A stretch of 64,000 nucleotides of DNA from a virus. Under the pieces are notes generated by a model. The model did no database searches. It was not told the DNA's origin and saw nothing but the letters and a program-made list of their open reading frames with translations. Positions 1 to 48,254 of the stretch are shown here, one piece after another; the first letter of the stretch is position 1, and each line of letters opens with the position of its first letter. The translations under genes were made by a program, and so were the position numbers. The stretch lies in the UHGV virus genome UHGV-1351569; one strand, written 5' to 3'.

Positions 1-1210
<1,210 letters not shown>

Positions 1211-1251
1211 GATTTCTCCTAATCTGGGCTTTAATTAGTTTATAATATTTA

Positions 1252-2953
<1,702 letters not shown>

Positions 2954-2966
2954 TTAAAAATCCTTT

Positions 2967-2982
2967 GGGGCCTTGCGGCCCC
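2967..2982 (-). terminator. GC hairpin GGGGCC-ttgc-GGCCCC between wac stop and gene 13 start
   Basis: perfect 6-bp GC stem with tetraloop in the 32-bp intergenic gap; weak U tract, so may be an RNA-stabilising hairpin rather than a full terminator. Confidence 0.45.
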
Positions 2983-2985
2983 ATG

Positions 2986-4443: not shown

Positions 4444-4452
4444 TTGTAATCC

Positions 4453-6003: not shown

Positions 6004-6659
6004 GCTATTCTCTCAAAATAATAAAATACCGTAGGTTGTGTGTGACTATCTAGCGTAACAGTTTGCGCACCTAATAATTGCCAAGTTCCGTATCCAGGTT
6101 TAGAAGGAGAAATTATTTCTTGTTTGAAAGTAATTCCTTTATCAGAGTATTGTTCTAAGATATGTTCCTGGTTATCTAAATACTTAACTTGTATTTTATT
6201 TCCTATTGTAGGATGGTCTTCAAATGAATCAATTGCAATAAATTTTGCAACCATTTCCTGTAGAGCTGTTCTAACGGCACTGGTAAATTCGATTGAAGTC
6301 ATTCCGTTAGTAGCTTTAACTGGAATACCAAACATGTTAACAATAACTGGGTCACCTGGTTTGGCTGAAGTATCAGTAACAGTTCCTTCAAATGACCAAT
6401 AGTCTGTTTGCTGCACGCCAGTAGGAGATACGCCGCTTATATTAACTAATACAGCTCCAACTTGTTGCTCTGCCATATTTCTAACATCATTGATAGCAGA
6501 TTCTACATTTGGGTCATAAAAACCTTTTGCTATTTGTGAAATTGTTACAGCGCCTACTGGCTGATTATTCATAACCGAAATATCATTTTTCTTAGTTCTA
6601 AAACCAAGAAAATCTGCTAAGCGGGAAATAACTCCCGCTTTATTATTAAGTAAACTCAT
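6000..6659 (-). CDS. 11: baseplate wedge / short-tail-fiber attachment protein gp11
   Basis: start taken at internal Met ([21 protein letters not shown]...) giving 219 aa; its ATG overlaps the gene 10 stop (TAATG). Confidence 0.85.
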
Positions 6660-8464
6660 TATGCAATCCTTATCCAACGGTATACAGTAATAGACGGTTG
6701 AATATTACTAATATTAGCAGGAGGAGTATGTGAAGAGTTTGTTGTTGCGTAATCTTCACGGTATTTTGTATATATAGGACCAGTTTCATCTGGGTCATAT
6801 TGGCAACCCCCAATAATAACCGATCCATTTTCGTCTTCAATTAAAACTCTTTCGTCGGTTTTAGTTGCAGGAAGATTTGCGTTTTCAAGCGTTACTGATG
6901 TTGTTCCAACTGTTCCACCGGCAGTATGTGAAGGATTTCCGCTAGAATCTAAATCATTATTGTTTAAAGCAAAGTTTGGATCTGTAACATCATCATTCCA
7001 TCCTACTAAAACCTGCCCTTTACCAAATAATTTCCATGAACCAAATCCCATATAAGTCACCGGATTATTTGGGTTTATAGCATTTTCATAAATTGAACCA
7101 ACAGGATAAATGCTGTCGAAAATAGATGATATTGAATTATACGTTCTAGTATAAGAATCAACTTTTTCAACATTTGGCCAACCGATTTTATCAAAATCTG
7201 TTAAGGCCACATCACCAGTAACTTCAGTAGATGATCCTTTACTAACATAACGGTCATCAGTTAATTCAATGATGTCATCTTTTTCTAAAAGAGTTCCTAA
7301 ATCATTATTGAACCATGTTATAACGATTATATCGCCGGATTCAAATTTTCTATCAAATAAAAGACTGACAGGTTTTCCATCTTCATATTCTATAGAATAA
7401 TCTGTATTCGATTCTTTCCATTCACCGCCAAGAGATATACATCCTTCTTGCGTATCTGAATTAGCGCCTTCACACAAAAACAGAGGATATCCAGCTGTTC
7501 CAGCCTGCTGCTGTAAAATTCCATTAAAACGAACCTCAAGAGAGTTAGGATTAATGGGTTCACCAGGAATTAATCCAAATGCAGAAAATGGAATTGATTT
7601 CATCGCCGATAAATCAGTAACATAAATGCTTCCTTCTAAAGAAGTCTTTGATGTTAGTTTTGAATCTAGTACTTTTATTTGGCGTCTTGTATATGAACTT
7701 CTCCATTGTGATACACCATCCATAAATGTTTCAATTTGAACGGTGTCACCAATATTACAAGGCTGTCTTAATCGAATATTAAATCCATCAAGAGGAACTA
7801 ATTCACCTTCATTTTCTCCAGGAGAACCAAAGTCACTGTTTTCGCTAAATACATCGCCATAATATAATTCATTACCGCGATGTTTTACTCTGATGTTATT
7901 GACATTATAACTAGTTCCATTAAAAACATCTAAAAAGTCTGTTTGCCCTTGAACTTCGACTAAAAATTCTTTGCGAGCTACATTACTAATATCTGAACTA
8001 ATAATTTTGTCAATTTGTTTATTTTTGACATATTCCCAACGTCCTGGAGCGCAATAAACGAGCTCTAAATCACTAAATTGAATATTAATTTCAACTGACG
8101 ATGACGACCCTTTAATTGTATCTCCGGAAGCAGCTACTAAAGTAACTGGATTGATGTTCCATGTAGCGAATACGTCTCTAGCTCTAATTACCTTGTTGTA
8201 ATCATTAACAGTTCCTTTAGGAAGTTGTAGAGTTACTCTTCCAGACGAAGTATTAATGGCATATGATTTTCCCCATTCTGCTGCTAATGTTTGTCCTGAT
8301 GAAGCATCATAAGTTTTCCAGGCACCGGCTGAATATGGAACATCTCCATCGCCAAGTTCATAATAAAGTTCATCAAAGTTTTCATTTATTTTTATACCAC
8401 CTTTACGCAGGTAGTCACCGGTACCATCATCAACAACATTACCGATATTAATATTTTGTTTCAT
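6659..8464 (-). CDS. 10: baseplate wedge protein gp10
   Basis: 601-aa ORF, size and order as T4 gp10. Confidence 0.85.
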
Positions 8465-9330
8465 TATTGAGCCACCCCGATTTTCTGCGTAGCGATAACT
8501 TTAACTGCTGCTCTCATACCGACAGTTGAAGAACTTATAGTTGCCGTTACATAATTTTCTTTAATACTAAATGCAATATTAGCGATTTCGTCTTCTTCTG
8601 TTTCATTTCCAACCCGCATGACAGCATATTCAGAAGAAATGACCGCTGAATTAACAGTATCTACAAGAATATTTATTTCTGCCGTTTTAATTTTTCTTCC
8701 ATCTACTGATTGGCATGTAACTAACAATTTAGCCATGTTATATTCAGTACGATGAAACAATGGAATGTCAACTGATCCAGACGTAGAAATATTCCATGTA
8801 CCTTCGGCCGGTGATTCCTTTTGGCCAAACATACTTTCAATAGAATAATTCCAAACAGACGTAGAATTATCAGATGAAATACATCGTAAAGTAACTTTAC
8901 TATATGGGCTAGTTACTACCAAATTACCCGAAACACCTTTAATTGAATCAATGGCTTGAATTGTTAAAGGATTAGTAACTGATATCGATCCATTAGAATT
9001 AATGAATTCAACACAGTCACCGAGTTCTCCTCTTTCAATGATAACTTTAACACCAACAGTAGAGGTATCAATATCATGCCTAGTACCAACTTTTACTGGA
9101 GTTGCGTACTCTGCAATAGAGTGTTTTTGATAATATCCAGTAGCATGGATAATTTGGCCATCTGCTCCAGTTCCATTTGCTACTGCCATTTTACGTTGAT
9201 CGCCAAACGCATTATAAATTGCGTTAAAATCACTATTAATTTTATTACCACCGTCGAATAAGATATCACCAGTAGAAGCGTTACCAATTTCGCCGGTATC
9301 AATCAATTTCTTTGGTTCTTGAATGAACAT
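8464..9330 (-). CDS. 9: baseplate wedge protein gp9 (long tail fiber socket)
   Basis: 288-aa ORF, size and order as T4 gp9. Confidence 0.85.
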   Translation of the reverse strand: MFIQEPKKLIDTGEIGNASTGDILFDGGNKINSDFNAIYNAFGDQRKMAVANGTGADGQIIHATGYYQKHSIAEYATPVKVGTRHDIDTSTVGVKVIIERGELGDCVEFINSNGSISVTNPLTIQAIDSIKGVSGNLVVTSPYSKVTLRCISSDNSTSVWNYSIESMFGQKESPAEGTWNISTSGSVDIPLFHRTEYNMAKLLVTCQSVDGRKIKTAEINILVDTVNSAVISSEYAVMRVGNETEEDEIANIAFSIKENYVTATISSSTVGMRAAVKVIATQKIGVAQ

Positions 9331-9354
9331 AGCGGTTTCCTTATGAGTTTATAG

Positions 9355-9362
9355 TATTTATA
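9355..9362 (-). promoter_or_regulatory. late promoter TATAAATA upstream of gene 9
   Basis: plus strand reads TATTTATA, i.e. TATAAATA on the minus strand, about 25 nt upstream of the gene 9 start. Confidence 0.6.
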
Positions 9363-9370
9363 AAGAAAAA

Positions 9371-9390
9371 AGGGAGCCCATGGGCTCCCT
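9371..9390 (-). terminator. rho-independent terminator after gene 8
   Basis: palindrome AGGGAGCCCATGGGCTCCCT followed on the minus strand by a U-rich run. Confidence 0.6.
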
Positions 9391-9394
9391 TAAG

Positions 9395-10399
9395 TTAAAA
9401 TGTAAACAGAATATTGATTTCTTCTGTTTGATCCATTGCCATGATAATAGGTGGCCTATTTTCCATATAAATCATTTCGCCCGAATGCCTCATTAAATCT
9501 TCCGGATCATAATAATCCTTTTCAGCTTTAACGTTTGGGTCATTTGGATTAGCTTTAGCTTCAAGAGGATTCGTGATTATTGATATTTGTCTAAATCCTT
9601 TATTTCCCGGCAATGCAGCTTCTGGAAAATAAACTGAATCTAAATATGCTTTAAAACGGATAGTATTTGCCTTAACACGGTAAATTAATCCAAAATCATC
9701 TTGTTGCCAAGTGAGATTATCTTCATACCCCCATCTAGCCGGGTCTTCTTTTAATTCCTCAGGCCAAGGAACCACGATATATTCATTCGTACATCTATTT
9801 ATAGATACATCAGGCGGAATCTCAAAAAGATATTCCCAAACATATCCGTCCCCAGGTTCAATTGTTCCTTCAGCATCTCCTCGACCTTCAGGCGGAGTCA
9901 TTGACCTAACAGAAGGAGTCCATTTTCCACCTAACTTAAGGCATTCATCCTTATTAGTTAAAGACTCAATTGAACACATTCCTGTGTCAGGAACATCTAA
10001 ACAACGATATACTAACCAGCCTGCGCCTGATTCAGTAGCATTGTAAGGAGCTGAGTTACACACTACAATATCGTTAATTCTAAATGTGTATGGATCCGGA
10101 TATCTAGTATCTCCCCAATCTCGACGAGGAATAACTGCATCAAGCATAGATGGAAGAACCTTTACGGTTCCCATCATATGAGTCCACATGTCAGTTACAC
10201 CTAATACAGAATCGGTAGGATAAGGTGGAGCAAAGCCCACCTCATTTTCATTTGATGACCACGGTTCTGATCTTCCAAATGTGATAAAGATAGTGTTTTT
10301 ATCCGGACCACTTCCAATTGAATTATAAAAATTCAACATTTTTTCTGTTCTAAATTTTGAAGTAACTATCGCACGATAGATAACACTTGAATCATTCAT
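9395..10399 (-). CDS. 8: baseplate wedge protein gp8
   Basis: 334-aa ORF, size and order as T4 gp8. Confidence 0.85.
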   Translation of the reverse strand: MNDSSVIYRAIVTSKFRTEKMLNFYNSIGSGPDKNTIFITFGRSEPWSSNENEVGFAPPYPTDSVLGVTDMWTHMMGTVKVLPSMLDAVIPRRDWGDTRYPDPYTFRINDIVVCNSAPYNATESGAGWLVYRCLDVPDTGMCSIESLTNKDECLKLGGKWTPSVRSMTPPEGRGDAEGTIEPGDGYVWEYLFEIPPDVSINRCTNEYIVVPWPEELKEDPARWGYEDNLTWQQDDFGLIYRVKANTIRFKAYLDSVYFPEAALPGNKGFRQISIITNPLEAKANPNDPNVKAEKDYYDPEDLMRHSGEMIYMENRPPIIMAMDQTEEINILFTF

Positions 10400-13300
10400 C
10401 TATTTTAACCTGTGTTGGATTTTCAGGGTCTCTTGGATTTCCTATATTATCTTTTAGACGTTTATTAACTAAATCCCTAAATTGTGCAAATGTTGTTCCA
10501 GATGCATCAAATAGAGGACTCATTAATTTACGTCGTTCAGATGGCAATTGACCTTGAAATATTGAATTATTATTTTCAGCATTATAGTCATCAGGAAGAG
10601 GATATTCTACACCAGCCATTGGGCCAGGTTCATAAATTGCTTCGCCTGTTACTGAGTCATGCTCAATTTCACCGGTTGGAGTTAATTTAGCTACTCTATC
10701 AGCATATTCAGTAGGCAATCCAGAATCCCATTTATAGTTTTTGTATTTATTAATTATAGTCTCTGTATGTTTAAGAGTTAAACCGACATTAATAAACATT
10801 GTTAAAAGGGTAATTGCTATAAATCCAAATCCTACTGGATGAACAAAACGAATAACGTCAGATTTCCAGCGGGAAGAAGGTAAATTGGATTTAATTTTCA
10901 TTACATAATATGATCTACTTCTATTAATATAGTCTATATTATTTTGAAGCAAATCCTTTCCTTTAACCCCGCGAATAATTTCGCCTTCGAAACTAGGGAG
11001 TCTTTCTGCTTTAACTTCTTGACCGGCAATTAATCTTCCCAAAAGATTATGAATAGTTACGGTCCATTGCAATTTGCCATTGGAATAGCTTCTTTCTATA
11101 TAAGTAACATTACATCTTCCTGTAGCAGTATAAATCGTTTGTCCTACTAAATCTTCAGTCAAAGAATCAGATTGAACGATTATATCATATTCAGTACCAG
11201 CCCCAGATTCAATTTCAATTTCAACTTCTTCATTATAAAGAACTTTAAAAAGAAATTTGTATGATGCTTCAATTCCTTTAGTAGAATAAAAATCATAGCT
11301 ACGTGATTCAAAAAATCTTGCAACAGCATCACGTTTGTCAGCATTTAAATAAATGTTTCTTTTATATATCTCTGACCACAAATATTCCCACGCATGCTCT
11401 TCTCGCGGATATTGGTTACGAATTAAATTTCGTAAATTATTATACTGAGTTCCATATCCATCAGAAAGATACTGAATATATGCTTCGCAGAATGCCTCAA
11501 AATTAGAATCCTGTAGCAAATAAGAATCAGGCATCATTGTGCCAATCAATGGTCTTAAATCAGGATCAGCTAATCCATGCTCTTCTTCCGGGGACCAAGG
11601 AGTTTCACGCTCTTGGTTTTGTAAAAATGCTTTTAAAAATATTCCAGTTGGCTTCCAAATTATTTCAACCGTGTCTCTCACTCGATAGTTAAAATCATAG
11701 TAAGAAATTATTTCACCAGAAGACTTATAAAAAAGCATCCCAGACGCGTATTTTTTAAATCCCGTGAATTTAACATTTGGCATTACTATCGTACAATCAC
11801 CATCATCCCAGTATTCATGAACTAATCTATCTGGTGATGTTTCCGGAATATTTTCTATAACTTTGGTGTATTTTAAATCAGCATAAACTACTACAGCTCT
11901 ATCAGAGTTGTTTATCCAACAGCGTGTGTTAGATTTTTTAGACCAGTTAAAGAATGGTTCTGCATAGTATTTCATCGGCTGAGGTGTAAAAGTTTCCCAA
12001 TCAGATTTTTCATCTGCTATAAATGCCATCATATGATAATGCTTATCAGCTAGCCATTCACGAGGAAATTCATATTTAACAGCACCTATTAACTGATATT
12101 TCGCCGCAGTTTCAGGGTCATTAACAATGTTATCACTTAAAAATTTAAAATTACTCGAAGACAGAGAAACTAATTTACCATCAGTTGACATATTCGCATA
12201 TCCAGGTTGAATACGTCTTCTTTCTTCTTCAGTGTTGCCAAAAACTCTTTTCCATGTTTTCGTGTCATGATTTAAAACATATATTCCTTTATCAGCAGAA
12301 TCAATTATTTTTGATGTTCTAGGATTAGCATTTAATGTTTCAACTTCTCCGATAATAAGAGCAAAAACTTTATCACCAATAGAATCCATTTTATAACATA
12401 CTGCTTTAGGATTTCCGGTTATAGTCATTGTATCAGGTTCAAATAGCCTTTCCGAATATGTTGGAGATAATGGGTCAGAATCTATAGGTGCATTACTCGT
12501 TTTTATGTATCTAACTTTGTCTCTGGCGACAACGTAAATGTAATCATCAGTGCAAGTAATAGCTTCCGCAATGCGGTATACATTAGCTGGCAAAGTCGCG
12601 TAAGTGGCAAAAATTTCTACATCAAATCCTAGATGTAATTGGTCGCCAAGTTTAGCAAATGTTATATCCTGCGAACTAAATCTGACATCATCAGCTGACC
12701 ATCTAACATCAGTAGATTTGCGGCCGTAGAAAATCTTGTCGTATCCTAGAACGTATGTTGTGTTTGCAGATTGGTAATATACAGTCTTAGATAAAGGATA
12801 TCCTACGCGGTCATTGAAGAGCTTTACAGCTTTCCAAGTTTGTCCTTTATCATTAGATACTTTAACTACAGGTTGATAACGCTCAAAAAGATATAGAATC
12901 CCTTCTGATTCCATCAAATAAACTCGGTTAATATCCTTACATACTTGCTGAATAGAACCTTGTATTTCATGATACTCATTTTCACCAATAATAAAATTAC
13001 TTATTGATGAAACATCAACATATGATGGGCTGAATTGAAACGATTCATTCATCAATGCAGCCATTATAGTGTCATTGTTAAAATTGACATAGTCAGAATT
13101 ATTAAGAGTAAATTTTTCCTGAATGAATTTATTAGCTAATTGCATTTCAATCATGTTTTGAAATGTATAAGCGTTTGTAGCAAAAGTTTCAAACTCTTCA
13201 GTATAAATCCAATCAGACTGCTTAAAATCCTGCGCAGCTGTAGCTACTCTAATAATGTACGATGTCAATGGATTAGCATTATCAAAAAAGAAGCTGTTAT

Positions 13301-13490
13301 TTGCAGTATATCCTAAGTTAATCCATCTGTATTGATTACTCGGGAGATTTTCCCCCGAGTTTGTTTTTGTCTCAGCGATTTCTACAAAATAGTAGAAATT
13401 AGCACCAACGTCATCCCAGCGTACTTGCACCTGATTTGCGGATAACTTGGAAATTCTGAGACTAGTGACTGAAGGTGCTTTTACTGTCAT
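10392..13490 (-). CDS. 7: baseplate wedge initiator gp7
   Basis: 1032-aa ORF, size and order as T4 gp7. Confidence 0.85.
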   Translation of the reverse strand: MTVKAPSVTSLRISKLSANQVQVRWDDVGANFYYFVEIAETKTNSGENLPSNQYRWINLGYTANNSFFFDNANPLTSYIIRVATAAQDFKQSDWIYTEEFETFATNAYTFQNMIEMQLANKFIQEKFTLNNSDYVNFNNDTIMAALMNESFQFSPSYVDVSSISNFIIGENEYHEIQGSIQQVCKDINRVYLMESEGILYLFERYQPVVKVSNDKGQTWKAVKLFNDRVGYPLSKTVYYQSANTTYVLGYDKIFYGRKSTDVRWSADDVRFSSQDITFAKLGDQLHLGFDVEIFATYATLPANVYRIAEAITCTDDYIYVVARDKVRYIKTSNAPIDSDPLSPTYSERLFEPDTMTITGNPKAVCYKMDSIGDKVFALIIGEVETLNANPRTSKIIDSADKGIYVLNHDTKTWKRVFGNTEEERRRIQPGYANMSTDGKLVSLSSSNFKFLSDNIVNDPETAAKYQLIGAVKYEFPREWLADKHYHMMAFIADEKSDWETFTPQPMKYYAEPFFNWSKKSNTRCWINNSDRAVVVYADLKYTKVIENIPETSPDRLVHEYWDDGDCTIVMPNVKFTGFKKYASGMLFYKSSGEIISYYDFNYRVRDTVEIIWKPTGIFLKAFLQNQERETPWSPEEEHGLADPDLRPLIGTMMPDSYLLQDSNFEAFCEAYIQYLSDGYGTQYNNLRNLIRNQYPREEHAWEYLWSEIYKRNIYLNADKRDAVARFFESRSYDFYSTKGIEASYKFLFKVLYNEEVEIEIESGAGTEYDIIVQSDSLTEDLVGQTIYTATGRCNVTYIERSYSNGKLQWTVTIHNLLGRLIAGQEVKAERLPSFEGEIIRGVKGKDLLQNNIDYINRSRSYYVMKIKSNLPSSRWKSDVIRFVHPVGFGFIAITLLTMFINVGLTLKHTETIINKYKNYKWDSGLPTEYADRVAKLTPTGEIEHDSVTGEAIYEPGPMAGVEYPLPDDYNAENNNSIFQGQLPSERRKLMSPLFDASGTTFAQFRDLVNKRLKDNIGNPRDPENPTQVKIDE

Positions 13491-15469
13491 TGTGATATAG
13501 GCTCCAAATCGATAGTTAAGTATTGTGGACGTAAATCATTTTCAAATACAATCAGTGAACCATCGCGTGTGAAAATAACATCGTCTATTGGATCAGAATA
13601 TAGCTCAATAGTCTGAACCTCAAATTTATCGGATGTTAAATTAATTTTAGCGATATTCCAATAAATCATGTCAGCTGGATAATTTATTTCACCGATAACA
13701 TAGTATTTGTCACGTCCATCGGAACTTGCTAATTTATTAAAATCATTGCCTGTATATGGCTGAATGTTTTCATTTTCTGTAACATCGCCAGAAGCAAATG
13801 GACCAATAATAACTTTGCCAATTCCTTTAGAATCTCGGTCTGTTGATACTATACGAACGTCATATAATACATCTTCTTCTAAACCAGTATCAGGATTTAC
13901 AACCTTTCGTCCAGAATTAAATGAAAACGTATTAGATTCCATAGAACGATCTTTTATTTGATTATTGTATTTAATACCCGCTTCAGGCGTTTTATAGAAG
14001 TTTTGTACTTCACGAACCATTTGAATTGTCGCGGATGAGCCAATGATAGAATGATCTGCATCATCTACGTATGTCAGCATCTTAGATTTAGCGAAAGATG
14101 AGTTAAAAATTTCTACATCTTCGGTATAATAACGATCAATTTTATCAATTATTTGACCTTCTAGCCACTGTTCTGATTCTTGCAGCTTATTTAAAGCATA
14201 TGTGACTTTTAAATTAGTCTTAACAAAAAGATAATTAGGAGAAATAATTGATGGTGTAATAGGAGCTAAATTATAATCTTTGAGATAATTTTTAATATCT
14301 TCACGTTGTACAGTAGTTAAATATAGTCCTGATTTAGGTTTAGCAGCAATAAATGCATAACCAGGCTTAGTAGAATCAGTGAAAGTCTGAACCGCTTGAA
14401 TAATAGAACCGAATCTTTCTGAAACGAATGTATCATAGTCGGTCGCAGTTACGCAGCGTTGCTGGGTTTCACGTTTAATAGTACCCAATTCGCGAATACG
14501 TTCAATATCTTCTGGGTCACCGCCGCCATCTGCCCCAACAAAATCTGGGTCATCGTTTGGATTTTCATTAATGTTGATGACAGTTATATTTGTTAATGTA
14601 TCTGCGTATGAAAATCCGACTGCACCGTTCGCATCTGCACCGTTAGTACTGATATACTCAATAACAATCGTAGAGTTCTGAGTAGGGTTAAGACCTCCAA
14701 TATAATTAGCGGTCAATGCTCCTTCTGCCGCATTAACGGAAATCTCACCTTCACCAAAATAAAATTCAGTATTTCCATCAATAGTTTCACGCATATAGTA
14801 AATTGTTGATGTAGAACCAGCGTGAACCATTGACTTTCTTGTCCAGTTAATCCATTCTGCTCCATCAACATACAGCTTAACTTGGTTTCTATCTATATTT
14901 TTGTCATAAATGATAATAGGTGTTAATTTATCATAAATGATTTCAGTTCTTACTATACGTCCCTGGGCCAATTTTAAACGCGGAAAATATTGATTATTTT
15001 TATCACGAATAGCAATAACATCTTCGGTAGAGACAAAGTTATAAGGATTAACAGAAGTATCCTTTGCATATGCTAAAAAGCGAGTACCACGAGGAATAGT
15101 AATGTAATTTCTATTCAATGCGTCTGTACAAGTTAGCATAATTTCAGTTTGAGCAGCTGATTTTGAAGTAGGTAAATATCCATTATCTTGTGCAGCTTGA
15201 ACTACTGAACTACGTAAGTTAGCAGTACGCATAAAGCTTTCATATACGGCAGCATTACCAAACTGCTGGATGTATAATGTATTATAAGCTAAAAGGTCAC
15301 ACAGAACGTTTAATCTTGAGCCTTCAAAATCATAATCCAAAAATTCATTTTGGCCATTAAGCCATTCAATGAGGTTTTGTTTTATTTCAGCAAACGTACC
15401 CCCGACGAATATCTCGGGAATAGCATTTGCTGTTCTTGTTAATTGATAATTTACAGGGGTATTTGCCAT
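13487..15469 (-). CDS. 6: baseplate wedge protein gp6
   Basis: 660-aa ORF, size and order as T4 gp6. Confidence 0.85.
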   Translation of the reverse strand: MANTPVNYQLTRTANAIPEIFVGGTFAEIKQNLIEWLNGQNEFLDYDFEGSRLNVLCDLLAYNTLYIQQFGNAAVYESFMRTANLRSSVVQAAQDNGYLPTSKSAAQTEIMLTCTDALNRNYITIPRGTRFLAYAKDTSVNPYNFVSTEDVIAIRDKNNQYFPRLKLAQGRIVRTEIIYDKLTPIIIYDKNIDRNQVKLYVDGAEWINWTRKSMVHAGSTSTIYYMRETIDGNTEFYFGEGEISVNAAEGALTANYIGGLNPTQNSTIVIEYISTNGADANGAVGFSYADTLTNITVININENPNDDPDFVGADGGGDPEDIERIRELGTIKRETQQRCVTATDYDTFVSERFGSIIQAVQTFTDSTKPGYAFIAAKPKSGLYLTTVQREDIKNYLKDYNLAPITPSIISPNYLFVKTNLKVTYALNKLQESEQWLEGQIIDKIDRYYTEDVEIFNSSFAKSKMLTYVDDADHSIIGSSATIQMVREVQNFYKTPEAGIKYNNQIKDRSMESNTFSFNSGRKVVNPDTGLEEDVLYDVRIVSTDRDSKGIGKVIIGPFASGDVTENENIQPYTGNDFNKLASSDGRDKYYVIGEINYPADMIYWNIAKINLTSDKFEVQTIELYSDPIDDVIFTRDGSLIVFENDLRPQYLTIDLEPISQ

Positions 15470-15477
15470 TTTAAATC

Positions 15478-15771
15478 CTATTTAATGAATACTTTAGATG
15501 ATGCCTGAGCCACAGTATCACCGCATGATATTGGATCAGCCATTTGAACAGCTTTCTTTCCAGTGACATATACCTTAGAAGTTCTGGGTTGTGTCACTCC
15601 GCCATGTGTTTCATATGGCTTTTTAATTTCTGTATGTTCTGTAATTGGATCACCTGCTACTAGAACAGCAATTCCTCCAGTGAATACTTTGCTTTGTGTA
15701 GCATTCACAACTGTTGGAGGCCACGCTTCATGACCAGCAGTAACACATTTATCATAACTTAATCCTGACAT
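15478..15771 (-). CDS. 5.4: PAAR-repeat spike tip protein gp5.4
   Basis: 97-aa ORF between 5 and 6 with Gly/Pro/His-rich PAAR-like repeats; RBS GAGG upstream. Confidence 0.75.
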
Positions 15772-16266
15772 TTATTGCCTCTCATATACGTAGCTTCTCA
15801 ATTTATTAGCCCAACGACTCCAATTTCCAACTATAGTTTTTGTGTAATTTTTAACAAGAGTTTTTCTTATTGGAGCTGGAGGATTCGTTGGTTCAGTAGT
15901 ATCAGAAGATGACCTAGAATTACTGCCAGAACCTCCAGATTCACTTTGTTCTTGGTAGTCATATATTAATGTTACTTCGTAAGTGAATGTCTTCTGGAGA
16001 TTTTGAGGAGCTTTCCATAAATACAACTGAGTGTCAGAATCAGTAGGAAGTTCTTCCCATGAAGCAGCAGTTTTAAATTCATCGCCTAAACGATATTTCA
16101 ACGCGTCATTTCCGAAACCAAATACAGATTCATATGTTCCATATAAGCGATTTTCTTCTACTAAAACCCCAGGAGTTTCTTCGTAACTAGTTATATTTAT
16201 AGATACTAACGTTTCACCTGTTTCTAATTGAGCGGTAAAGGTGACGTCGATAGAAGAACCTTCCAT
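15772..16266 (-). CDS. hypothetical protein (gp5.1-like)
   Basis: ORF between 5 and 5.4; start chosen at the Met preceded by AGGAGA ([10 protein letters not shown]...), the longer ORF would overlap gene 5. Confidence 0.55.
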
Positions 16267-16300
16267 GGATTCTCCTAAATCAGTGCTCATTGGAAGTATA

Positions 16301-18028
16301 TTAGCCAATGTCAATCCTCGATCCATCAATTGTGTATTGACCAGATGAAATAGAACTCATAGATGCCATTTTTTCTGTCCAATCACCACCAACGTCCCAA
16401 TCAACTGTCCCAGCAACTTTCCAAGAAAGATTTCCATTTACTGTATTAGTCTGATTTCCTTCAACTAAAGTGGTAGCATCTCCTTTAACTGTAATGTCAG
16501 CATTACCTTCAACTACAATAGTAACATTACCTTTGACTAGGATAGTTCCATTACCTTCAACCGTCTTAGTTTCATCGCCACGCACAAATATTGTATTGCT
16601 TCCATCTATTTGGTGGAGACGATTATCCATGTTGTAATAAATTTCTGACCCACCGACGTTAGTCTTTTTATCACCAGCTACCAAAAAATTACCATCAGCA
16701 TTTGTTATATCATACAAATTATCAACAGTTTTTCTTGTTCTTCTTCCTGACGGTGATACTTCCTCATATGTTCCAGTCGGATGAACTAATCTGTATCGTT
16801 CTTGTCCCGGGGTATCGTCAAATTCCTGAATATGACCGCTTTCAGTTTCCATTGTGTGAACATACGGATATTCACCTTTATATGAAGAAACAGGTTCTTT
16901 GAATAAAATTCTTGAATCATTCGGAATAGGAGGATCAGCCGGGTCAGAAGACTTTGCTACAGTAGCAGCCATTGCAGACAAAGACCTAGCCGGTGTTTTC
17001 ACTTCAATACCGTATGATTCCAAATTCCCTGTAAGAATAATCATGGTAACACGAGATGCACGGCCTTTTGTTTGTTGATACCACAATGAATCACGACCAG
17101 CTTTATATGCTTTTTCCCAATCTCCGGCTAACATAGCTGTTAACATTGTGTTAAATTTAGCTACACCGCCAACACCCATCTGAAATGCCATATTTTCTAA
17201 TGCCATTTGACGAGAACGATTAACTGCTTTCCAAACTGGGCCAACTTTAGAATGTGATTTAATGTCACGTTGCATATCAGCCAAATCGCGTTCAAATAAA
17301 GTTACCGCTTCTTCCATTGTAATAGAACCTGGATTTCCGGTAATTTCACGACCAACTTGTTTTGATAAAACTTTATTAATTTGGGTCATATCACGAACTG
17401 GCTGCTTCATGATAAGATGACCAATGCCAATTGTCGGATATCCTTCAGTATCCCAATAAACTTTTAGTCTTAATCCTTCATCACGGCGAAGCATTTCAGC
17501 CATTGACATATTTGGATTATCATCAGTTGGAATTTCTGATAACGGTCTATCATCAGGATTTATCGCAGTGTCTAGATTACTATCTTGGATAATATTAGAA
17601 GACGAATCATATCCTACTTCTCCGCCTTGGTTTAATACGTTAGTATCATTTCCTAGACGTCTAGGATACTGTCCAGTTGGGTCAGAAAATCCTTCAAGTC
17701 TATTAGGCTTTTCGCGAACTATTCCACCATACGTGCCAAGGACAATTCCGTTAGTTTTCCATTTGTCTAAAAAATGACCATAAACTCTAGTTCCTTCTAC
17801 TGGCCCTGTAACAGAACCTCCAATTCCAGACATTGCTGCAGAAGTTATCGGTTGAATAACTGACATCCATGGCAATTTATCGGTTGGAATACCCATTACA
17901 TCGCCTTGTGCTCTCTGAGGCGGATGCAGACCAACCACACGAACACGAACACGACCTAATTTTAATGGGTCCATTCTATCTTCAACAACACCAACAAACC
18001 AATTAAGGTTATTACTTATCATTTCCAT
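16301..18028 (-). CDS. 5: baseplate hub subunit and tail lysozyme gp5
   Basis: 575 aa; internal lysozyme motif LRRDEGLRLKVYWDTEGYPTIGIGHL similar to gene e product; C-terminal VxGNxT beta-helix repeats. Confidence 0.9.
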   Translation of the reverse strand: MEMISNNLNWFVGVVEDRMDPLKLGRVRVRVVGLHPPQRAQGDVMGIPTDKLPWMSVIQPITSAAMSGIGGSVTGPVEGTRVYGHFLDKWKTNGIVLGTYGGIVREKPNRLEGFSDPTGQYPRRLGNDTNVLNQGGEVGYDSSSNIIQDSNLDTAINPDDRPLSEIPTDDNPNMSMAEMLRRDEGLRLKVYWDTEGYPTIGIGHLIMKQPVRDMTQINKVLSKQVGREITGNPGSITMEEAVTLFERDLADMQRDIKSHSKVGPVWKAVNRSRQMALENMAFQMGVGGVAKFNTMLTAMLAGDWEKAYKAGRDSLWYQQTKGRASRVTMIILTGNLESYGIEVKTPARSLSAMAATVAKSSDPADPPIPNDSRILFKEPVSSYKGEYPYVHTMETESGHIQEFDDTPGQERYRLVHPTGTYEEVSPSGRRTRKTVDNLYDITNADGNFLVAGDKKTNVGGSEIYYNMDNRLHQIDGSNTIFVRGDETKTVEGNGTILVKGNVTIVVEGNADITVKGDATTLVEGNQTNTVNGNLSWKVAGTVDWDVGGDWTEKMASMSSISSGQYTIDGSRIDIG

Positions 18029-41217: not shown

Positions 41218-41242
41218 AGGGAGCCTTCGGGCTCCCTTTTTT
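41218..41242 (+). terminator. rho-independent terminator
   Basis: AGGGAGCC-ttcg-GGCTCCCT followed by T6. Confidence 0.7.
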
Positions 41243-41266
41243 ATTTCAAAATTTTTTCACAAAACG

Positions 41267-41296: not shown

Positions 41297-41330
41297 ACAA
41301 CTATCAACTGATACGGATTTGGAGAATAAA

Positions 41331-42300
41331 ATGAAAACTGTAACTATCAATAAGGGTATCTACTTCGGTAAAGAAATCTCTGGAACTTTTGAGCTCTTAG
41401 GCGAATGGTTCCCAGATAATGCTCCGGTAGATGCACAAGGAGATGGTAAAGTTTTTGTTGAAATTGACGGTAAACGTCGCGGTGTTTGGGTTTACAAATC
41501 AGATATTTCATATGATGGTGTAAAAGTTGAAGAAGTTAAAGAATCGTATGAAGATATGAAAACCCGCATTAATAAAAGATTTAATGTTATGGGAATGATG
41601 ACGAATGGTATTATTAATGGAAATATTCGTTCATTGATTATCTCTGGTGCAGCAGGTATTGGTAAAACGTATTCTTTAGATAAAGCTTTAAATAAAGCAA
41701 ATGATATTGGATACATTGAATATAAAAGCATTAATGGTAAAATCTCTGGTATTGGTCTTTATGAGCAGCTTTGGAATAATCGTGAAGAGAATTCTGTCCT
41801 TTTGATTGATGATGTGGATGTTTTCTCTGATATGGACATTCTTAATCTTCTAAAAGCTGCTCTGGACACTGGAGAGACCCGTAAAGTCTGCTGGAGCACG
41901 GCGTCTTCTTACTTAGAAGAAAAAGGCATTGAGCGTGAGTTTGAATTTAAAGGAACGATTGTTTTTATCACAAACGTTGACATTGACCGCGAATTAGACC
42001 GTGGTACTAAACTTGCCCCCACACTTACAAGCATTAGTGTCCCGCTCGGTTTATTTGGATTTAGGCGTTCACACTAATGAAGAAATTATGGTCAGGGTTG
42101 AAGATGTTATTCTTTCAACTGACATGATGCAAAAGCGCGGTCTTTCTGATGAAGAAACTTATAAAGCATTATCATGGATGAAAGTTAATGTTAATCGTTT
42201 ACGCAATGTTTCACTGCGTACTGCTCTTTATCTTGCTGACTTTATTATGACCGACAAAAACGGTTGGGAAGAAATTGCTGAGGTTACTCTTCTGAAATAA
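41331..42300 (+). pseudogene. AAA+ ATPase with reading frame split by a +1 shift near a C5 run (42016-42020)
   Basis: Walker A SGAAGIGKT, Walker B LLIDDVD, sensor-1 FITN in frame 1 (stop at 42075-42077); frame +1 ORF from 42001 continues to 42300; removing one C joins them into about 322 aa. Confidence 0.5.
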
Positions 42301-42764: not shown

Positions 42765-43292
42765 ATGAACGCTAAAGATATTTTCAACTTGGTAAATTAC
42801 AACGATGGTAAATTTAAATCTGAAGCACAAAGCAAGTTCTTTAACGACATCTCAATCGGAGGTGAAATTACTGTTGATGGAGGACAAATTTACAAATCCC
42901 GTTGGAATTGGATCGTTATTATCGATGAGATTGGTATTGTAGAAATTTACAAGAATACGAATAAAAATCGTACATTACACTGGTCTCGTGATACTAATGA
43001 ACAGTACAAAAAGGATAAAGCATCTAAATTATCTCGTGTAACTCAAGAAGATATTGAGTTCATCAAGAAAGATATTTTAATGTATGATAACTTAATTGCT
43101 GAAGAGCAAGCTGTTATTGATAAATTTGACGAGATTAAAGCTTCTCGTGAAATTCCTGATTTTATGAAAGAATCAGTAAATGAACGATACTCTCTCATTT
43201 CAGAGCGTATTGAAACTTACAAAAAGCAAAGAGCTGAACGCCAAAATACTCTTCGGAAGTTTGAAGAACGGTTAAAGACGGTACTCGCATAA
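42765..43292 (+). CDS. hypothetical protein
   Basis: 175-aa ORF. Confidence 0.5.
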   Translation: MNAKDIFNLVNYNDGKFKSEAQSKFFNDISIGGEITVDGGQIYKSRWNWIVIIDEIGIVEIYKNTNKNRTLHWSRDTNEQYKKDKASKLSRVTQEDIEFIKKDILMYDNLIAEEQAVIDKFDEIKASREIPDFMKESVNERYSLISERIETYKKQRAERQNTLRKFEERLKTVLA

Positions 43293-43347: not shown

Positions 43348-43752
43348 ATGAAACAGTTGATAATTAAAAGATTGAATTTATTGATATGTTGTTTATGTAT
43401 AGTAATTGCATATGGTTATTACGCAATTAATGATTATATGCATTATAAAGATTATGATGTTACTGTAGTTAATACCTTTACAGGAACTCAAGGAAAGGGG
43501 TCTAGTTTATCGTTTATTGCTGTATATGAACTCAAAGACGGTTATAGATTTAGCGAATATATTTCACCAGAGATGTATTCATCAATAGAAAAAGGCGATA
43601 ATATTACTGTAAGTTTACGTCCTTTCGACGTAAAACAGACATTGTTTGATAATATTGTTTGGTTCTTTGGAATGGTATTAGTTCAATCTGTATGCGGTGC
43701 TTATATAGTCTTTTCCATCATATTCTGCATATTTAGTAAAATTGAAAATTGA
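43348..43752 (+). CDS. predicted membrane protein
   Basis: 134 aa, N- and C-terminal hydrophobic helices. Confidence 0.5.
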   Translation: MKQLIIKRLNLLICCLCIVIAYGYYAINDYMHYKDYDVTVVNTFTGTQGKGSSLSFIAVYELKDGYRFSEYISPEMYSSIEKGDNITVSLRPFDVKQTLFDNIVWFFGMVLVQSVCGAYIVFSIIFCIFSKIEN

Positions 43753-44651
43753 GTGAGGAAAATATGTCAGTAGTAATTAATAATGTCAATGCAGTAATTA
43801 AATCTTTAGTTAATAAAAAATTGAATGAATGGACTGTACTTCGTCGTGGAGAGCCAGATAAATTTTTTCATAGATTTAACCCAACTTTGGATTTGAATGT
43901 TATTGACAGAGATGTTCATGCTGAAATTTTAGATAAATTTAAAGTTGATATTGGGTTTGGATTAGATAAACATTTACAACGAACAAACGGGTCTGGAATG
44001 GGTTTATCTAATCGCATCATGAAAGCCCTTAATAAAATTGGAGCGTTGTCTCGTATTAATGCGAGTGAAATCCTTCGTAATTATAATAAAGGATATGACC
44101 TTTATGGTCGACTAATGCCAAAATTATCATTCGATCAAATGATTGCGGATTTGTGGGAAAATCAACGACGATTATTAGCATTGGGAGCTCGATTAGCTAA
44201 AGGTCTAGATAAACAAATGATTTTTAAGACCAATAATACAGAAGACCTTAAATGCTTTAAATTTAGTATTCGTGGCGATGATTATTACATCAGAACTCGC
44301 TCCACAGATTATGTCAATATGGGCCATCATCTCTGTTTAGCTTTTGAAGTTTTAAAAGAAGCTGGAACATTAGAATATACGTCTGGTACTAAATGCCCGA
44401 TTGGTTCAAATTGTATTTTGATTTATCGCCCGGATGAATCCAGTTCAACTAAATTGCCTACGAAACCTGTACCAGTTCGTAGTAATGAAAAACATTCTGA
44501 ACAAATTGATTATTTTAATAAGCAAATTGAAGAGCTGAATATTTCTATTCAACAGTATGACGATGAAATTTTCAGACTATCTGGATTGAGTAGTAAAGCT
44601 AAATCTGAGCGTGAAAAGTTAATTAAAATTGTCGATTTACTTAAATCTTAA
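43749..44651 (+). CDS. hypothetical protein with C-terminal coiled coil (array member 1)
   Basis: 300-aa ORF. Confidence 0.5.
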   Translation: MSEENMSVVINNVNAVIKSLVNKKLNEWTVLRRGEPDKFFHRFNPTLDLNVIDRDVHAEILDKFKVDIGFGLDKHLQRTNGSGMGLSNRIMKALNKIGALSRINASEILRNYNKGYDLYGRLMPKLSFDQMIADLWENQRRLLALGARLAKGLDKQMIFKTNNTEDLKCFKFSIRGDDYYIRTRSTDYVNMGHHLCLAFEVLKEAGTLEYTSGTKCPIGSNCILIYRPDESSSTKLPTKPVPVRSNEKHSEQIDYFNKQIEELNISIQQYDDEIFRLSGLSSKAKSEREKLIKIVDLLKS

Positions 44652-44659
44652 GGAACACC

Positions 44660-45688
44660 ATGAAAACTCGTTCTCAAATTGAAGATATGGTTCGTAACGC
44701 CAGCTATACTCGTGATGTTATGACATTTTTGTGCCAAAATAATTTAGACCCTGATAAAGTTAATCGTGTTATTCATCACTTTAAGTATACGAATAGCAGT
44801 GAATGGGTGCGTAATTTTAGTAAAGCGGGGTATATTACACAAATGACTGCTCGTGAGCAGCTCACCGATTTCTGTAAAACTATTGATTATAAAAATCCTC
44901 TATTTGTTCAAGGCGTTGGTCAAAGTAAGGTCGATTTATCAACAGGATTTTTTAATCCAAATCATTATCGTATTGAATGGAGATTTATTGCTCTATTCCG
45001 TAAACAATTAAAGCAAATTTTGTCTACTGCTAGTCGATTAAAAGGTTCTGATATTAACTTAAAGAATCTGAAATTTGATGGTTATACTCTTCAGATGGAA
45101 GTAAGACCATTAAAAGAAAATAACAGAACTGCACGAATTAGCTTTAAACCTAATACAAAAAATTCTCTTTCAATTTGCGAATGCCTTAAATCGCAGTTGA
45201 CAGAAGCATTTAAGTATATGGATGTTGTTGCTGCTGTTCAGTCTAAGATTTCACAACATTTCGAACGATTTAAATTAGACACAACAACATATGAACTTGA
45301 TATGATCGTTTCATTTAAATATGAATTTTTGAGAAAGGACGAAGTTACACAAGAGAAAAAGCAAGAAGTGCAAGATAACTTAAATTTAAATTTATCCAAT
45401 TACTCATCAAACGATCCTAAATTTTGGATGTATAGTTCAGGTAATAAGGATGCATGGAAATTCAATAAAGTGAATTTTCTTCCTGTTGAAAATCCGAGTC
45501 TTAAACCTGTTGAAAAATGGCATGCAGATGCGATTGAGAAGTCTATCAAGGCAGTAGATGATGAACTCGTTAAAGCAACTAATGAAGTGCTAGAAGCTGA
45601 AAAGATGCTAGAAAAAGCTCAAGAAAAAGTCAAAAATCTCACGAAGCAACGTTCTAAACTGAACAATGCACTAAATGCACTGAACTAG
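44660..45688 (+). CDS. hypothetical protein with C-terminal coiled coil (array member 2)
   Basis: 342-aa ORF. Confidence 0.5.
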   Translation: MKTRSQIEDMVRNASYTRDVMTFLCQNNLDPDKVNRVIHHFKYTNSSEWVRNFSKAGYITQMTAREQLTDFCKTIDYKNPLFVQGVGQSKVDLSTGFFNPNHYRIEWRFIALFRKQLKQILSTASRLKGSDINLKNLKFDGYTLQMEVRPLKENNRTARISFKPNTKNSLSICECLKSQLTEAFKYMDVVAAVQSKISQHFERFKLDTTTYELDMIVSFKYEFLRKDEVTQEKKQEVQDNLNLNLSNYSSNDPKFWMYSSGNKDAWKFNKVNFLPVENPSLKPVEKWHADAIEKSIKAVDDELVKATNEVLEAEKMLEKAQEKVKNLTKQRSKLNNALNALN

Positions 45689-45717
45689 TTTACTTTACCA
45701 CAGGGATGTGGTATAAT
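45688..45717 (+). promoter_or_regulatory. early promoter
   Basis: GTTTAC ... TGGTATAAT. Confidence 0.55.
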
Positions 45718-45745
45718 GTTCTTACTTTCTACTGAGGAGATTAAT

Positions 45746-46747
45746 ATGACTCGTAACGAATATATCAAATCATTCAATAGCGTTATTGATGATAAAGCTA
45801 TACCGATGTTTGGCCAAAATAGCGTTCTTTCTATTATCAATCAATGGCTCAATAGTGTTGATGCAAGTATTGTTTCTTCTACTAAATTTATTCATGAAAT
45901 TCGTAAAATTTCTAGCCGTGTAGATAAAGATGTTATCAAGAAAACCTTTAAAGAGTCTCGTCTTCTTTCATATTTGGTTAATCGGGATATTCTTGGTAAT
46001 TTTGGGAAAGAAATTAAACGAACCAAAGATGTAGTAGGATATAATTGGTTCGGTGATGTTAATTCTTATCATCTTAATAATAAAGAAGACCCTGAGAATA
46101 TTTTTACTCGTCGTTGGATTAGTAATTTCAGACTTTTCAAAGGACAGATTCTAAAATCAGCTTCTAAATTATGTTATGGCGATTATCGTCAAATTCATCC
46201 TTTGGCTTCTGATATGATTATCATAAAAGAATATGAACTTGATAAAAATAAAGTATCTATTTTTGTGAATTATGGATTTTTTACACCAGAAACTAACCAA
46301 AAGAATATTAATAAATTTTTCTCAATTGCTAGCACTATAACTCGTCAATTAGAGACCGCATTACTTTGTATGGAAACAGTAGAAAATATTCATACATATC
46401 CTTTTAAGAATATATGCGGATGGGAAGGATATAAAATTGTAATTAGTCTTCGTGAAGTGAAATGTGCTTATTCACCTACTGATAAAGAAATTTATCAACA
46501 AAAATGTGAGGAAATTGTGAATACTCCTAAAGAAGAAACTACCCTTGAGGAACTAATGGAATGTCTTGATGATTCACCTGAACCGGTAGAAATTCGTCCA
46601 GAAGTTATTGCATTAGAAAAAGCTTATAAAGAAGTTCTAGAAATTTCTAATAAAGCGCAGAAAGAATATGAGCAGGCTAAAAGGATTTGGGAAGAATCTG
46701 TTAATCGTCTTGATCGTCTGGAACAAGCTTTACAGTTAATTAAGTAA
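45746..46747 (+). CDS. hypothetical protein with C-terminal coiled coil (array member 3)
   Basis: 333 aa from RBS-supported ATG (GAGGAG). Confidence 0.5.
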   Translation: MTRNEYIKSFNSVIDDKAIPMFGQNSVLSIINQWLNSVDASIVSSTKFIHEIRKISSRVDKDVIKKTFKESRLLSYLVNRDILGNFGKEIKRTKDVVGYNWFGDVNSYHLNNKEDPENIFTRRWISNFRLFKGQILKSASKLCYGDYRQIHPLASDMIIIKEYELDKNKVSIFVNYGFFTPETNQKNINKFFSIASTITRQLETALLCMETVENIHTYPFKNICGWEGYKIVISLREVKCAYSPTDKEIYQQKCEEIVNTPKEETTLEELMECLDDSPEPVEIRPEVIALEKAYKEVLEISNKAQKEYEQAKRIWEESVNRLDRLEQALQLIK

Positions 46748-46799
46748 TTTAAAGCCAAGGATGGCTCGGAGTATAAACTATTAACCAAGTGAGAAGAAC

Positions 46800-47726
46800 A
46801 TGAAAACTCGTAAACATTATATTGATTATTTTGACAGTCTTATTACTAAACATCGTAATTATCAGATAGGACACAGAGCAGTAATCAATAATATTCTTCG
46901 TGATTTTTTAGACTATATTGGATGGGAAAACCATATTTGTAAAGATACACAAAATGCGTATTCACATTCTCTTGGTTCTTTGCTCGAGTGGTTCAAACGT
47001 TCCCGATTACTATCTTCTGTGATAGCTGTTAATAATGTTAAAAAATTTATGTATCCAAGCTACATTGAGACTAATGTATCAAATGCTAGTGTTGTTACAT
47101 TTAATATTATTAACGACGTGAAAAGAACTTATTTAGAAGAATGGTTTTCTAAAGATAGTAAAGAAAAATTTGCCAGTGAGTTTTCACACGAATTTAATAA
47201 TAATGTGAATATGCTTTTTAAGCATTCTCGTAGACTGTTTTGTCATGGCGATGACCGTACTATTAATGTAAATGTAAAAGATTGGGTTACGGCTAAATTC
47301 ATTCCATCATCACAGAATGGACCATTTGAATTGTCAATTATTGTTTGTGCTCCGCATGAAATATATAAAAATATTCCATATATGAAACCATGTGAAGCTA
47401 ATAAACATAATAAAACGATTCGTTCTTTGACTTATAATCTTCGTACGTTATTGTCTAAAATGGACGTAGTTGAATCCTTTGATGATAATACGAATTATGG
47501 TCTTTCACTATTTGAAACTAAAGTTGTTATTAAGTTAAAGGACCCTAGTAAATTTAAACCTACGCCAAAGCCCAATCGTGGGAATGATACTATGAAAGAA
47601 GAACGCGAATATCTCAGTGCTCGTTTGATTGAAGTTGAAAAACAGATTGAAGAGCATACTAAAGTTATTAAGGCTTTAACTGCCAAAGCAAATGGTTTAC
47701 GTGATGCTATTGAGGTACTGAAATGA
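46800..47726 (+). CDS. hypothetical protein with C-terminal coiled coil (array member 4)
   Basis: 308-aa ORF. Confidence 0.5.
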   Translation: MKTRKHYIDYFDSLITKHRNYQIGHRAVINNILRDFLDYIGWENHICKDTQNAYSHSLGSLLEWFKRSRLLSSVIAVNNVKKFMYPSYIETNVSNASVVTFNIINDVKRTYLEEWFSKDSKEKFASEFSHEFNNNVNMLFKHSRRLFCHGDDRTINVNVKDWVTAKFIPSSQNGPFELSIIVCAPHEIYKNIPYMKPCEANKHNKTIRSLTYNLRTLLSKMDVVESFDDNTNYGLSLFETKVVIKLKDPSKFKPTPKPNRGNDTMKEEREYLSARLIEVEKQIEEHTKVIKALTAKANGLRDAIEVLK

Positions 47727-48040
47727 AAAAGCGTTTATTAGAAGATATTGCAGCTTCAAGTAATTCCAGTCTAATTAAAATTATTATGGCTGGTGAAGAA
47801 GACGATCTGGAAATGCGTGGAAAGATTCATGGTTGTGACGATTTAGATTTTAAACCTCCAGCTTGGGATGCCATTATGGCTATGGTTGAACGTCGCGAAA
47901 GGGCTTCTAAAAGCGTTCCTAATTGTCCTGAATGCGGTACTGAACAGGTTCAATTAGTCCATTGGCAGACTAGTAATCTTCGTTATAAATGCCGTCATTG
48001 CAAACACCGATTTAACCGAGAAGAAAATGACCAAGCGTAA
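47723..48040 (+). CDS. small protein with C-terminal zinc-ribbon-like CxxC...CxxC
   Basis: NCPECG...CRHCKH. Confidence 0.45.
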
Positions 48041-48254
48041 AGAATATATGGAGATTGCTGAAAAGGCAGTACGTGAATTAGCAATAGCATATTATAATGA
48101 ACATGGTAAATTTCCTGATAGATACAGCGTGCTTAAATCTGCTTTAACTCGTTCATATAAAAATATGCTATCAGAAGTAAGTGATATTATTACAAACATA
48201 AAGAACAAACGGGCCAAAGTCTTGATTACGACGAGACTTTTAAACAAGTACTAG
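48027..48254 (+). CDS. hypothetical protein
   Basis: 75-aa ORF. Confidence 0.45.

Follow-up and report, generated by a model that had tools for sequence, protein, structure and literature searches.

The product of phage T4 gene nrdC.5, a member of Pfam family DUF7235, counters the defence protein Dsr1. Due to dsr1, ECOR17 resists infection by a T4 clone that carries compensatory deletions; the cloned gene also protects MG1655 from this clone, and infection is restored when T4 nrdC.5 is expressed (Srikant, Guegler and Laub 2022, PMC9391042). Dsr1 is a sirtuin defence protein with a tetratricopeptide repeat (TPR) sensor, which is shared with Avs7 and triggered by the phage major capsid protein (2026 preprint, PMC12803255). 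Here, we analyzed a stretch of 64,000 nucleotides (nt) of the virus genome UHGV-1351569 (“the window”), which carries an array of four consecutive genes at positions 43749-47726. The corresponding open reading frames (ORFs) are numbered ORF1 to ORF4 from left to right, and ORF2 is the orthologue of T4 nrdC.5. The four proteins are very probably paralogues, i.e. tandem diverged duplicates of one gene that end in a common coiled-coil tail, and on balance we favor the model that the family expanded in tandem and that its members act as early anti-defence proteins.

Further inhibitors are encoded in the vicinity of nrdC.5. According to the text of the HIDEN-SEQ preprint (bioRxiv 10.1101/2025.11.20.689424), nrdC.1 inhibits Septu and bas37_0203 inhibits Druantia type III. 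The latter gene, located in phage KarlGJung, is the orthologue of nrdC.8 and is 99% identical to window positions 42765-43292 encoding an ORF of 175 amino acids (aa). Gp49.2, encoded a few genes downstream of the array, inhibits OLD (PMC13096335). With these inhibitors nearby, the array lies within an anti-defence island and includes one proven inhibitor itself. NrdC.1, Bas37_0203, Gp49.2 and the Lon inhibitor Pin belong to the same accessory block on the same strand and are dispensable on laboratory E. coli, but they are unrelated to the array in sequence and are not matched by either of the two profiles described below, tail or superfamily. The HIDEN-SEQ supplement lists T4 nrdC.3 to nrdC.6 as non-essential on E. 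coli K-12. A functional analogy exists to DSAD1, which is described as an inhibitor of the sirtuin defence system DSR2: in both cases a phage protein neutralizes a defence of the SIR2-type nicotinamide adenine dinucleotidase (NADase) kind that senses a virion protein. However, DSAD1 targets DSR2 rather than Dsr1 and originates from another group of phages, and no sequence or fold relationship to the array was found.

The array stretch of 3,978 bases matched 503 phage records, nearly all of them Tequatrovirus-type phages of Escherichia, Shigella, Yersinia and Salmonella; RB18 was closest (97.1% identity), while T4 was 96.3% identical. The window derives from a Tequatrovirus, i.e. a T4-like phage. 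According to the gene order in the T4T record, ORF1, ORF2, ORF3 and ORF4 are the orthologues of T4 nrdC.6, nrdC.5, nrdC.4 and nrdC.3, with 97.0%, 95.0%, 98.2% and 95.8% amino acid identity, respectively. The expected T4 neighbors surround the array, nrdC.11 to nrdC.7 upstream and nrdC.2, nrdC.1, nrdC, gene 49 and nrdD downstream. The array comprises the following features:

43764..44651, plus strand: ORF1, orthologue of T4 nrdC.6, 295 aa; PF26899 (on homologues) and phrog_2257.
Layout of ORF1, plus strand, according to the AlphaFold model: helical N-terminus; alpha/beta core at about residues 81-221; short linker; tail at residues 242-294 (about nt 44487-44648).
44660..45688, plus strand: ORF2, orthologue of T4 nrdC.5, 342 aa; Pfam DUF7235/PF23882.
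Layout of ORF2, plus strand: core at residues 55-222 (nt 44822-45325); disordered, indel-rich linker at residues 224-282; helix at residues 284-341 (nt 45509-45685).
45746..46747, plus strand: ORF3, orthologue of T4 nrdC.4, 333 aa; PF26897 (on homologues) and phrog_1435.
46610-46744, plus strand: heptad tail of ORF3, final 45 residues.
46800..47726, plus strand: ORF4, orthologue of T4 nrdC.3, 308 aa; phrog_1435, the PHROG family common to ORF3.
47589-47723, plus strand: heptad tail of ORF4, final 45 residues.

Thus, four ORFs on one strand fill positions 43749-47726 as stated in the initial annotation, which had assigned sizes of 300-343 aa. The gene layout stands, while two of the four starts were moved. 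ORF1 most likely starts at ATG 43764 rather than at TTG 43749, because a GAGG Shine-Dalgarno sequence is present, homologues open with MSV or MSQ and T4 nrdC.6 encodes 296 aa. Likewise, ORF3 most likely starts at ATG 45746, as judged from a GAGGAG Shine-Dalgarno sequence, the MTRNEY opening of its homologues and the 333 aa of T4 nrdC.4. The corrected starts give the sizes listed above. Gaps within the array measure 8, 57 and 52 nt, and ORF4 overlaps with the next gene by ATGA.

Each array protein ends in a long, proline-free heptad helix of 45-58 residues. In all four proteins, the top-scoring 35-residue heptad window of the entire sequence is the C-terminal one, and hydrophobic residues occupy 83-92% of the a/d positions in the tails as compared to 17-27% elsewhere. 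Composition-matched shuffles reached the observed heptad score in 0-10 of 2000 cases, ruling out that the tail signal is an artefact of composition. AlphaFold models, which covered ORF1 and ORF2, show the ORF2 tail as a single helix of 58 residues (284-341) and the ORF1 tail as two helices (242-271 and 277-294), with predicted local distance difference test (pLDDT) values mostly between 73 and 91. The 45-residue tails of all families can be aligned nearly without internal gaps and have the common ending (Q/E)RxKLxxA(I/L)xxLK. Among 131 ORFs of the window, the tail profile retrieved exactly ORF1 to ORF4 (E-values 1e-12 to 4e-15), the next best match scoring 0.011. Heptad scores, shuffles, AlphaFold helices and the tail profile therefore bear out the coiled-coil C-termini that had been predicted. 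Conservation within each family is highest in the tail. The N-terminus is the most variable region or among the most variable ones, and it is by far the least conserved part of ORF1 and ORF2. The tail may mediate self-association or docking. NrdC.8 was considered as a short family member due to its helical end and was rejected (E 2.5 with the tail profile, E 4.1 with the superfamily profile).

Direct BLASTP comparison of neighboring ORFs returned nothing apart from the pair ORF3-ORF4, which is 24% identical over 270 residues (E 2e-4) and aligned with 97.7% probability in hhalign (E 2e-12). ORF2 aligned with the combined ORF3/4 profile across the globular part (85%, E 6e-6). A profile of all four families was then searched against 1.84 billion representative proteins and yielded 36 representatives at E<=1e-3, about 15 of which are new full-length relatives (288-364 aa). 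Several proteins each matched three independent family profiles lacking the tail, e.g. P0253 with E-values of 5e-5, 2e-8 and 3e-8, and P0250 with E-values of 2e-7, 5e-4 and 1.5e-5. For extended core profiles, the new relatives were joined to the nearest family and the last 65 residues were cut off. With these tail-less profiles, the ORF1 family aligned with the ORF2 family at 96.2% probability (E 2.7e-9) and with the ORF3/4 family at 96.6% (E 6.2e-10), and the ORF2 family aligned with the ORF3/4 family at 96.6% (E 5.2e-10). Controls employing the nrdC.11, nrdC.10 and nrdC.8 families or reversed profiles reached 1.9% or less.

Although not significant by themselves, the direct pairwise alignments of ORF1 with the other families involve the same segments in the same order in every case. 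A common core motif, h-h-x-x-(G/A)-(A/S)-(R/K)-h-x-x-G-x-(D/N)-(R/K), is represented by LLALGARLAKGLDKQ in ORF1, ILSTASRLKGSD in ORF2, ILKSASKLCYGDYR in ORF3 and MLFKHSRRLFCHGDDR in ORF4. In the favored model, every array protein is built from a variable helical N-terminus, the homologous alpha/beta core with this motif, a flexible linker and the conserved heptad helix. In addition, the (K)TR of an N-terminal (K)TRxxY/I motif is common to ORF2, ORF3 and ORF4, and the first 12 nt are identical in ORF2 and ORF4. That the array is a diversified family of paralogues, in which the front varies and the tail is common, is supported by these links at 96-98% between tail-less cores. Only the notion that the globular N-terminal regions are “distinct” did not hold, as they represent strongly diverged homologues instead.

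The predicted structures of ORF1 and ORF2 were compared by the order of their elements and by their matches in BFVD. The models of ORF1 (mean pLDDT 77.2) and ORF2 (mean pLDDT 67.6; about 70-92 in the core, residues 55-222, followed by disorder at 224-282 and one long helix) run through the same succession of elements. Helices at the N-terminus are followed by a pair of helices, a first beta hairpin, another helix and another beta hairpin, and a linker then leads to the final helix. When searched against BFVD, both models matched uncharacterized proteins that are encoded by other T4-like phages and measure about 300-335 aa. The PM2 protein A0A0A0PZG4 was found with both (E 1.4e-5 with the ORF2 model, 1.0e-6 with the ORF1 model) and so was the Mineola protein A0A2Z4QAR2 (4.4e-7 and 2.7e-4, respectively). 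The ORF1 model additionally matched proteins of Acinetobacter, Yersinia, Citrobacter and Enterobacter phages, and the ORF2 model proteins of Erwinia and Aeromonas phages. In tblastn searches, P0248, which resembles ORF2/ORF3, and P0252, which resembles ORF1, matched a common gene in the phages of Enterobacter, Kosakonia and Edwardsiella.

Existing databases divide these proteins among three families. ORF2 matches DUF7235 over residues 1-342 with 422.2 bits (cut-off 30), covering the entire model, and is flanked by the orthologues of nrdC.6 and nrdC.4, the position of nrdC.5 in T4. With this model, ORF4 gave a sub-threshold signal in its tail (11.2 bits), and ORF1 and ORF3 had no match. ORF3 (4e-169) and ORF4 (3e-100) match phrog_1435, and every ORF3 homologue carries a precomputed PF26897 match. 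ORF1 matches phrog_2257 (2e-152), and its homologues carry a precomputed PF26899 match. T4 NrdC.4 and NrdC.3 (PF26897, phrog_1435) as well as NrdC.6 (PF26899, phrog_2257) are the orthologues of ORF3, ORF4 and ORF1. While the databases keep PF26897 and PF26899 apart from DUF7235, the present analysis joins all of them in one superfamily, in which ORF1, ORF3 and ORF4 are distant paralogues of T4 NrdC.5 outside DUF7235.

Scans of the four proteins with Pfam, NCBIfam and PADLOC gave nothing informative besides DUF7235. The sole match to PADLOC defence models was a weak coiled-coil match of ORF3 to BrxC (E 0.008), and PDB sequence searches with three family profiles produced only coiled-coil or designed-repeat noise. 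Many GenBank/UniProt records label homologues of nrdC.2 to nrdC.11 as “thioredoxin”. No thioredoxin or glutaredoxin family was matched by any array protein (Pfam E<=1; NCBIfam E<=0.1), and the label therefore appears to have been propagated from the gene-name prefix nrdC.x.

The gene following ORF4 and a putative promoter are listed here:

47723..48040, plus strand: nrdC.2 homologue, a zinc-ribbon protein of 105 aa (CPEC...CRHC), whose ATG overlaps the ORF4 stop codon (CTGAAATGA).
45689..45717, plus strand, in the gap before ORF3: promoter-like site with TTTACT, a 17 nt spacer, TATAAT and an upstream TG; 10 of 12 consensus positions match (consensus scan only).

A small hairpin at 45696-45713 overlaps the promoter-like site. 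The ATGA stop/start overlap between the last family member and nrdC.2 recurs in six of seven phages checked, i.e. in the window (junction 47720-47726), T4, VR25, PM2, F48 and phiR1-RT; equivalent junctions were examined in loci L019, L006, L020, L021 and L017. RB69, the seventh phage, has a TAATG overlap instead. This suggests that the last family member and nrdC.2 form a conserved, translationally coupled gene pair, and a functional link between them may be inferred. Since the overlap is common to those phages, the original unit apparently consisted of a single family gene with the small zinc-ribbon gene coupled to it.

All named representatives belong to T4-like phages or to assemblies labelled as bacterial, mostly contigs of phage size. 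Thus, the family is small and is seen only in T4-like phages (Straboviridae), where the genes are conserved in at least 462 phage genomes. Array size was compared across related phages, as had been proposed, and differs between lineages, which also keep different members:

Tequatroviruses (T4, Bas37, loci L002-L005): 4 copies, all four types.
Loci L006-L014 (VR-phage type) and JS98: 3 copies, represented in L006-L014 by nrdC.6, nrdC.5 and nrdC.4.
RB69: 3 copies, nrdC.6, nrdC.5 and nrdC.3.
PM2, F48 and phiR1-RT: 1 copy each, directly upstream of nrdC.2 in PM2 and F48.
KPV15 and RB16: 0 copies in the stretches examined.

Because RB69 keeps the nrdC.3 type and L006-L014 keep the nrdC.4 type, the split between nrdC.4 and nrdC.3 predates the genus Tequatrovirus. 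Within the genus, two nrdC.3 alleles with about 60% identity circulate. The ratio of non-synonymous to synonymous substitution rates (dN/dS), computed among six Tequatroviruses, was 0.06 for ORF1, 0.17 for ORF2, 0.19 for ORF3 and 0.22 for ORF4. These values reflect purifying selection and therefore real genes. The corresponding values of nrdC.11, nrdC.9, nrdC.8 and nrdC were 0.01-0.05, and the proteins of ORF2 to ORF4 change 3-4 times faster than those of nrdC.11, nrdC.9 and nrdC.8. Between genera, ORF2 is 23-28% identical as compared to 67-87% for flanking genes. The pattern is that of functional, fast-changing accessory genes that are gained and lost between phages.

Individual arrays are altered. 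In P0056 (three contigs, the longest of 167,058 bases), the middle of nrdC.5 is fused in-frame to the second half of nrdC.3; the underlying deletion took out nrdC.4 and has a short NxVN repeat at its junction. In locus L005 (6980-8033), nrdC.4, i.e. the ORF3 type, is split into two ORFs. Fusion and split point to ongoing loss and rearrangement inside the array. In RB69 nrdC.5 (L015 13348-14450), the tail is encoded in a different frame from the body, as seen by comparison with the APCEc01-type protein P0259, and the annotated protein therefore lacks the tail. This frame change reflects either a pseudogene or a sequencing error.

The initial annotation considered the function of all four proteins unknown; for ORF2 this no longer applies, given the role of its T4 orthologue against Dsr1. 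ORF2 differs from T4 NrdC.5 in 5% of its amino acids and by two residues in length, and the anti-Dsr1 activity was determined for the T4 allele. ORF2 likely retains this activity. For ORF1, ORF3 and ORF4, we give the possibility that they are defence inhibitors as well an even chance or slightly better. The accessory block with the array shares its strand with the early genes of T4, and the array products would be made before the late virion proteins. Each paralogue may bind and silence a different host immune sensor via its diverged core and N-terminal surface; the target of ORF2 would be Dsr1, a sirtuin NADase, blocked before the capsid protein appears. The tail could provide self-association, hence avidity, or a common docking element. 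This particular combination of binding and oligomerization is proposed tentatively.

Several observations weigh against this model. In the searchable literature, nrdC.3, nrdC.4 and nrdC.6 appear in lists, and none of them is tied to a defence system by experiment. The text of the HIDEN-SEQ preprint does not name the three genes among the reported hits, and one of its conditional-fitness tables shows no significant depletion of the three genes. The effect of NrdC.5 on Dsr1 could be indirect rather than through binding. Strong conservation of ORF1 (dN/dS 0.06) fits an arms race less well than the values of ORF2 to ORF4. ORF1 is also the member whose relationship is least direct: its original profile gave no significant match to the other families (E 0.02-0.4), and the link is transitive, because the intermediates themselves came from the search with the profile that combines all four families. 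Finally, quality of the structural models is moderate, as seen from the mean pLDDT values given above, and template modelling scores to distant relatives range from 0.22 to 0.49.

Alternatively, the four proteins might be subunits of one hetero-oligomeric machine, possibly including NrdC.2, in which the tails form a helical bundle. Equal length, heptad register and end motif of the tails, each family keeping its own conserved tail sequence, would fit such a complex, and so would the location of the genes on one strand with short gaps and the apparent translational coupling between nrdC.2 and the last member, which was seen in six of seven phages. However, an obligate complex is hard to reconcile with copy numbers of 1, 3 or 4 and with retention of different members, RB69 keeping the nrdC.3 type and JS98 and the VR phages the nrdC.4 type. 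Moreover, nrdC.5 alone, provided on a plasmid, restored infection (PMC9391042), although it is not stated which paralogues were left in the clone (extent of the “evo 3” deletion). We therefore consider this alternative unlikely.

A further possibility is that the proteins are host take-over factors acting outside immunity, e.g. modulators of RNA polymerase, and that NrdC.5 affects Dsr1 indirectly. The one point in its favor is a weak fold similarity to the RNA polymerase alpha N-terminal/RPB11-like dimerization fold, and we regard this explanation as quite improbable. It is very unlikely that the core imitates a virion neck protein of the tail terminator/completion fold and serves as an early decoy for immune sensors, for which a weak fold similarity speaks as well. 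Scores for both folds are too low to claim ancestry or function, and no sequence similarity to either of them was found. The assumption that the array is decaying or non-functional filler, whose tails reflect AT-rich composition, could draw on the occasional broken copies (the L005 split, the RB69 frame change and the P0056 deletion fusion), but is effectively refuted by dN/dS values of 0.06-0.22, by conservation in at least 462 phage genomes, by tails that are the best-conserved part of each protein and have heptad scores rarely reproduced by shuffles, and by one member with a demonstrated phenotype.

Some observations concern the surroundings of the array. The nrdC.1 homologue of the window (48027-48254) is 85% identical to the T4 protein over residues 1-66 and has a divergent C-terminal end; its last 25 residues match in a different frame. 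The nrdC.10 homologue (41319-42300), which has weak Pfam matches of the AAA/STAND-like NTPase type, is split into two overlapping ORFs by one extra C at about 42015-42020 (GCCCCC, as compared to GCCCC or GCTCC in three related phages), reflecting a genuine frameshift or else an error in sequencing the homopolymer. Directly after nrdC.11, a strong terminator-like hairpin is present at 41218-41247, consisting of a stem of 8 base pairs, six of them G-C, followed by TTTTTATTT; the record of Yersinia phage fPS-2 has a terminator annotated at the matching place. At a larger scale, GC skew and AT skew flip sign near position 18,000 (1-18000 versus 18000-64000). Long minus-strand ORFs (e.g. 10392-13490, 1032 aa) lie to the left and plus-strand genes to the right, and the flip presumably marks a switch of transcription direction between gene blocks.

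Going beyond the favored model of an anti-defence family, we put forward as a speculative possibility that the family constitutes a set of sensor blockers, modular and open to expansion, which grew from one ancestral gene coupled to nrdC.2. The ancestral gene would have been duplicated up to four times, and each core would have been re-tuned to a different pattern-recognition protein, Dsr1 and others with Avs7-type TPR sensors. The C-terminal helix, invariant at the protein end, would be the docking or assembly element, which might enter the groove of a repeat protein or bundle with NrdC.2.

Even in T4, which has been studied better than any other virulent phage, three of the four large array genes have no assigned function. 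The genes themselves are annotated in hundreds of genomes, one of them with a published role, and they do not constitute a new kind of system. What is new here is modest, i.e. three families of Pfam and PHROGs are joined in one superfamily with a core motif, a tail and a copy-number series. Paralogy with a proven anti-Dsr1 factor, in a block with three recent inhibitors, makes the remaining members specific and testable candidates. The series of 1, 3 and 4 copies together with the nrdC.3 alleles illustrates in compact form how tandem duplication and divergence enlarge the counter-defence repertoire of a phage. If they indeed belong to a set of sensor blockers, nrdC.3, nrdC.4 and nrdC.6 would be three defence inhibitors not recognized so far, and direct screening could reveal their targets.

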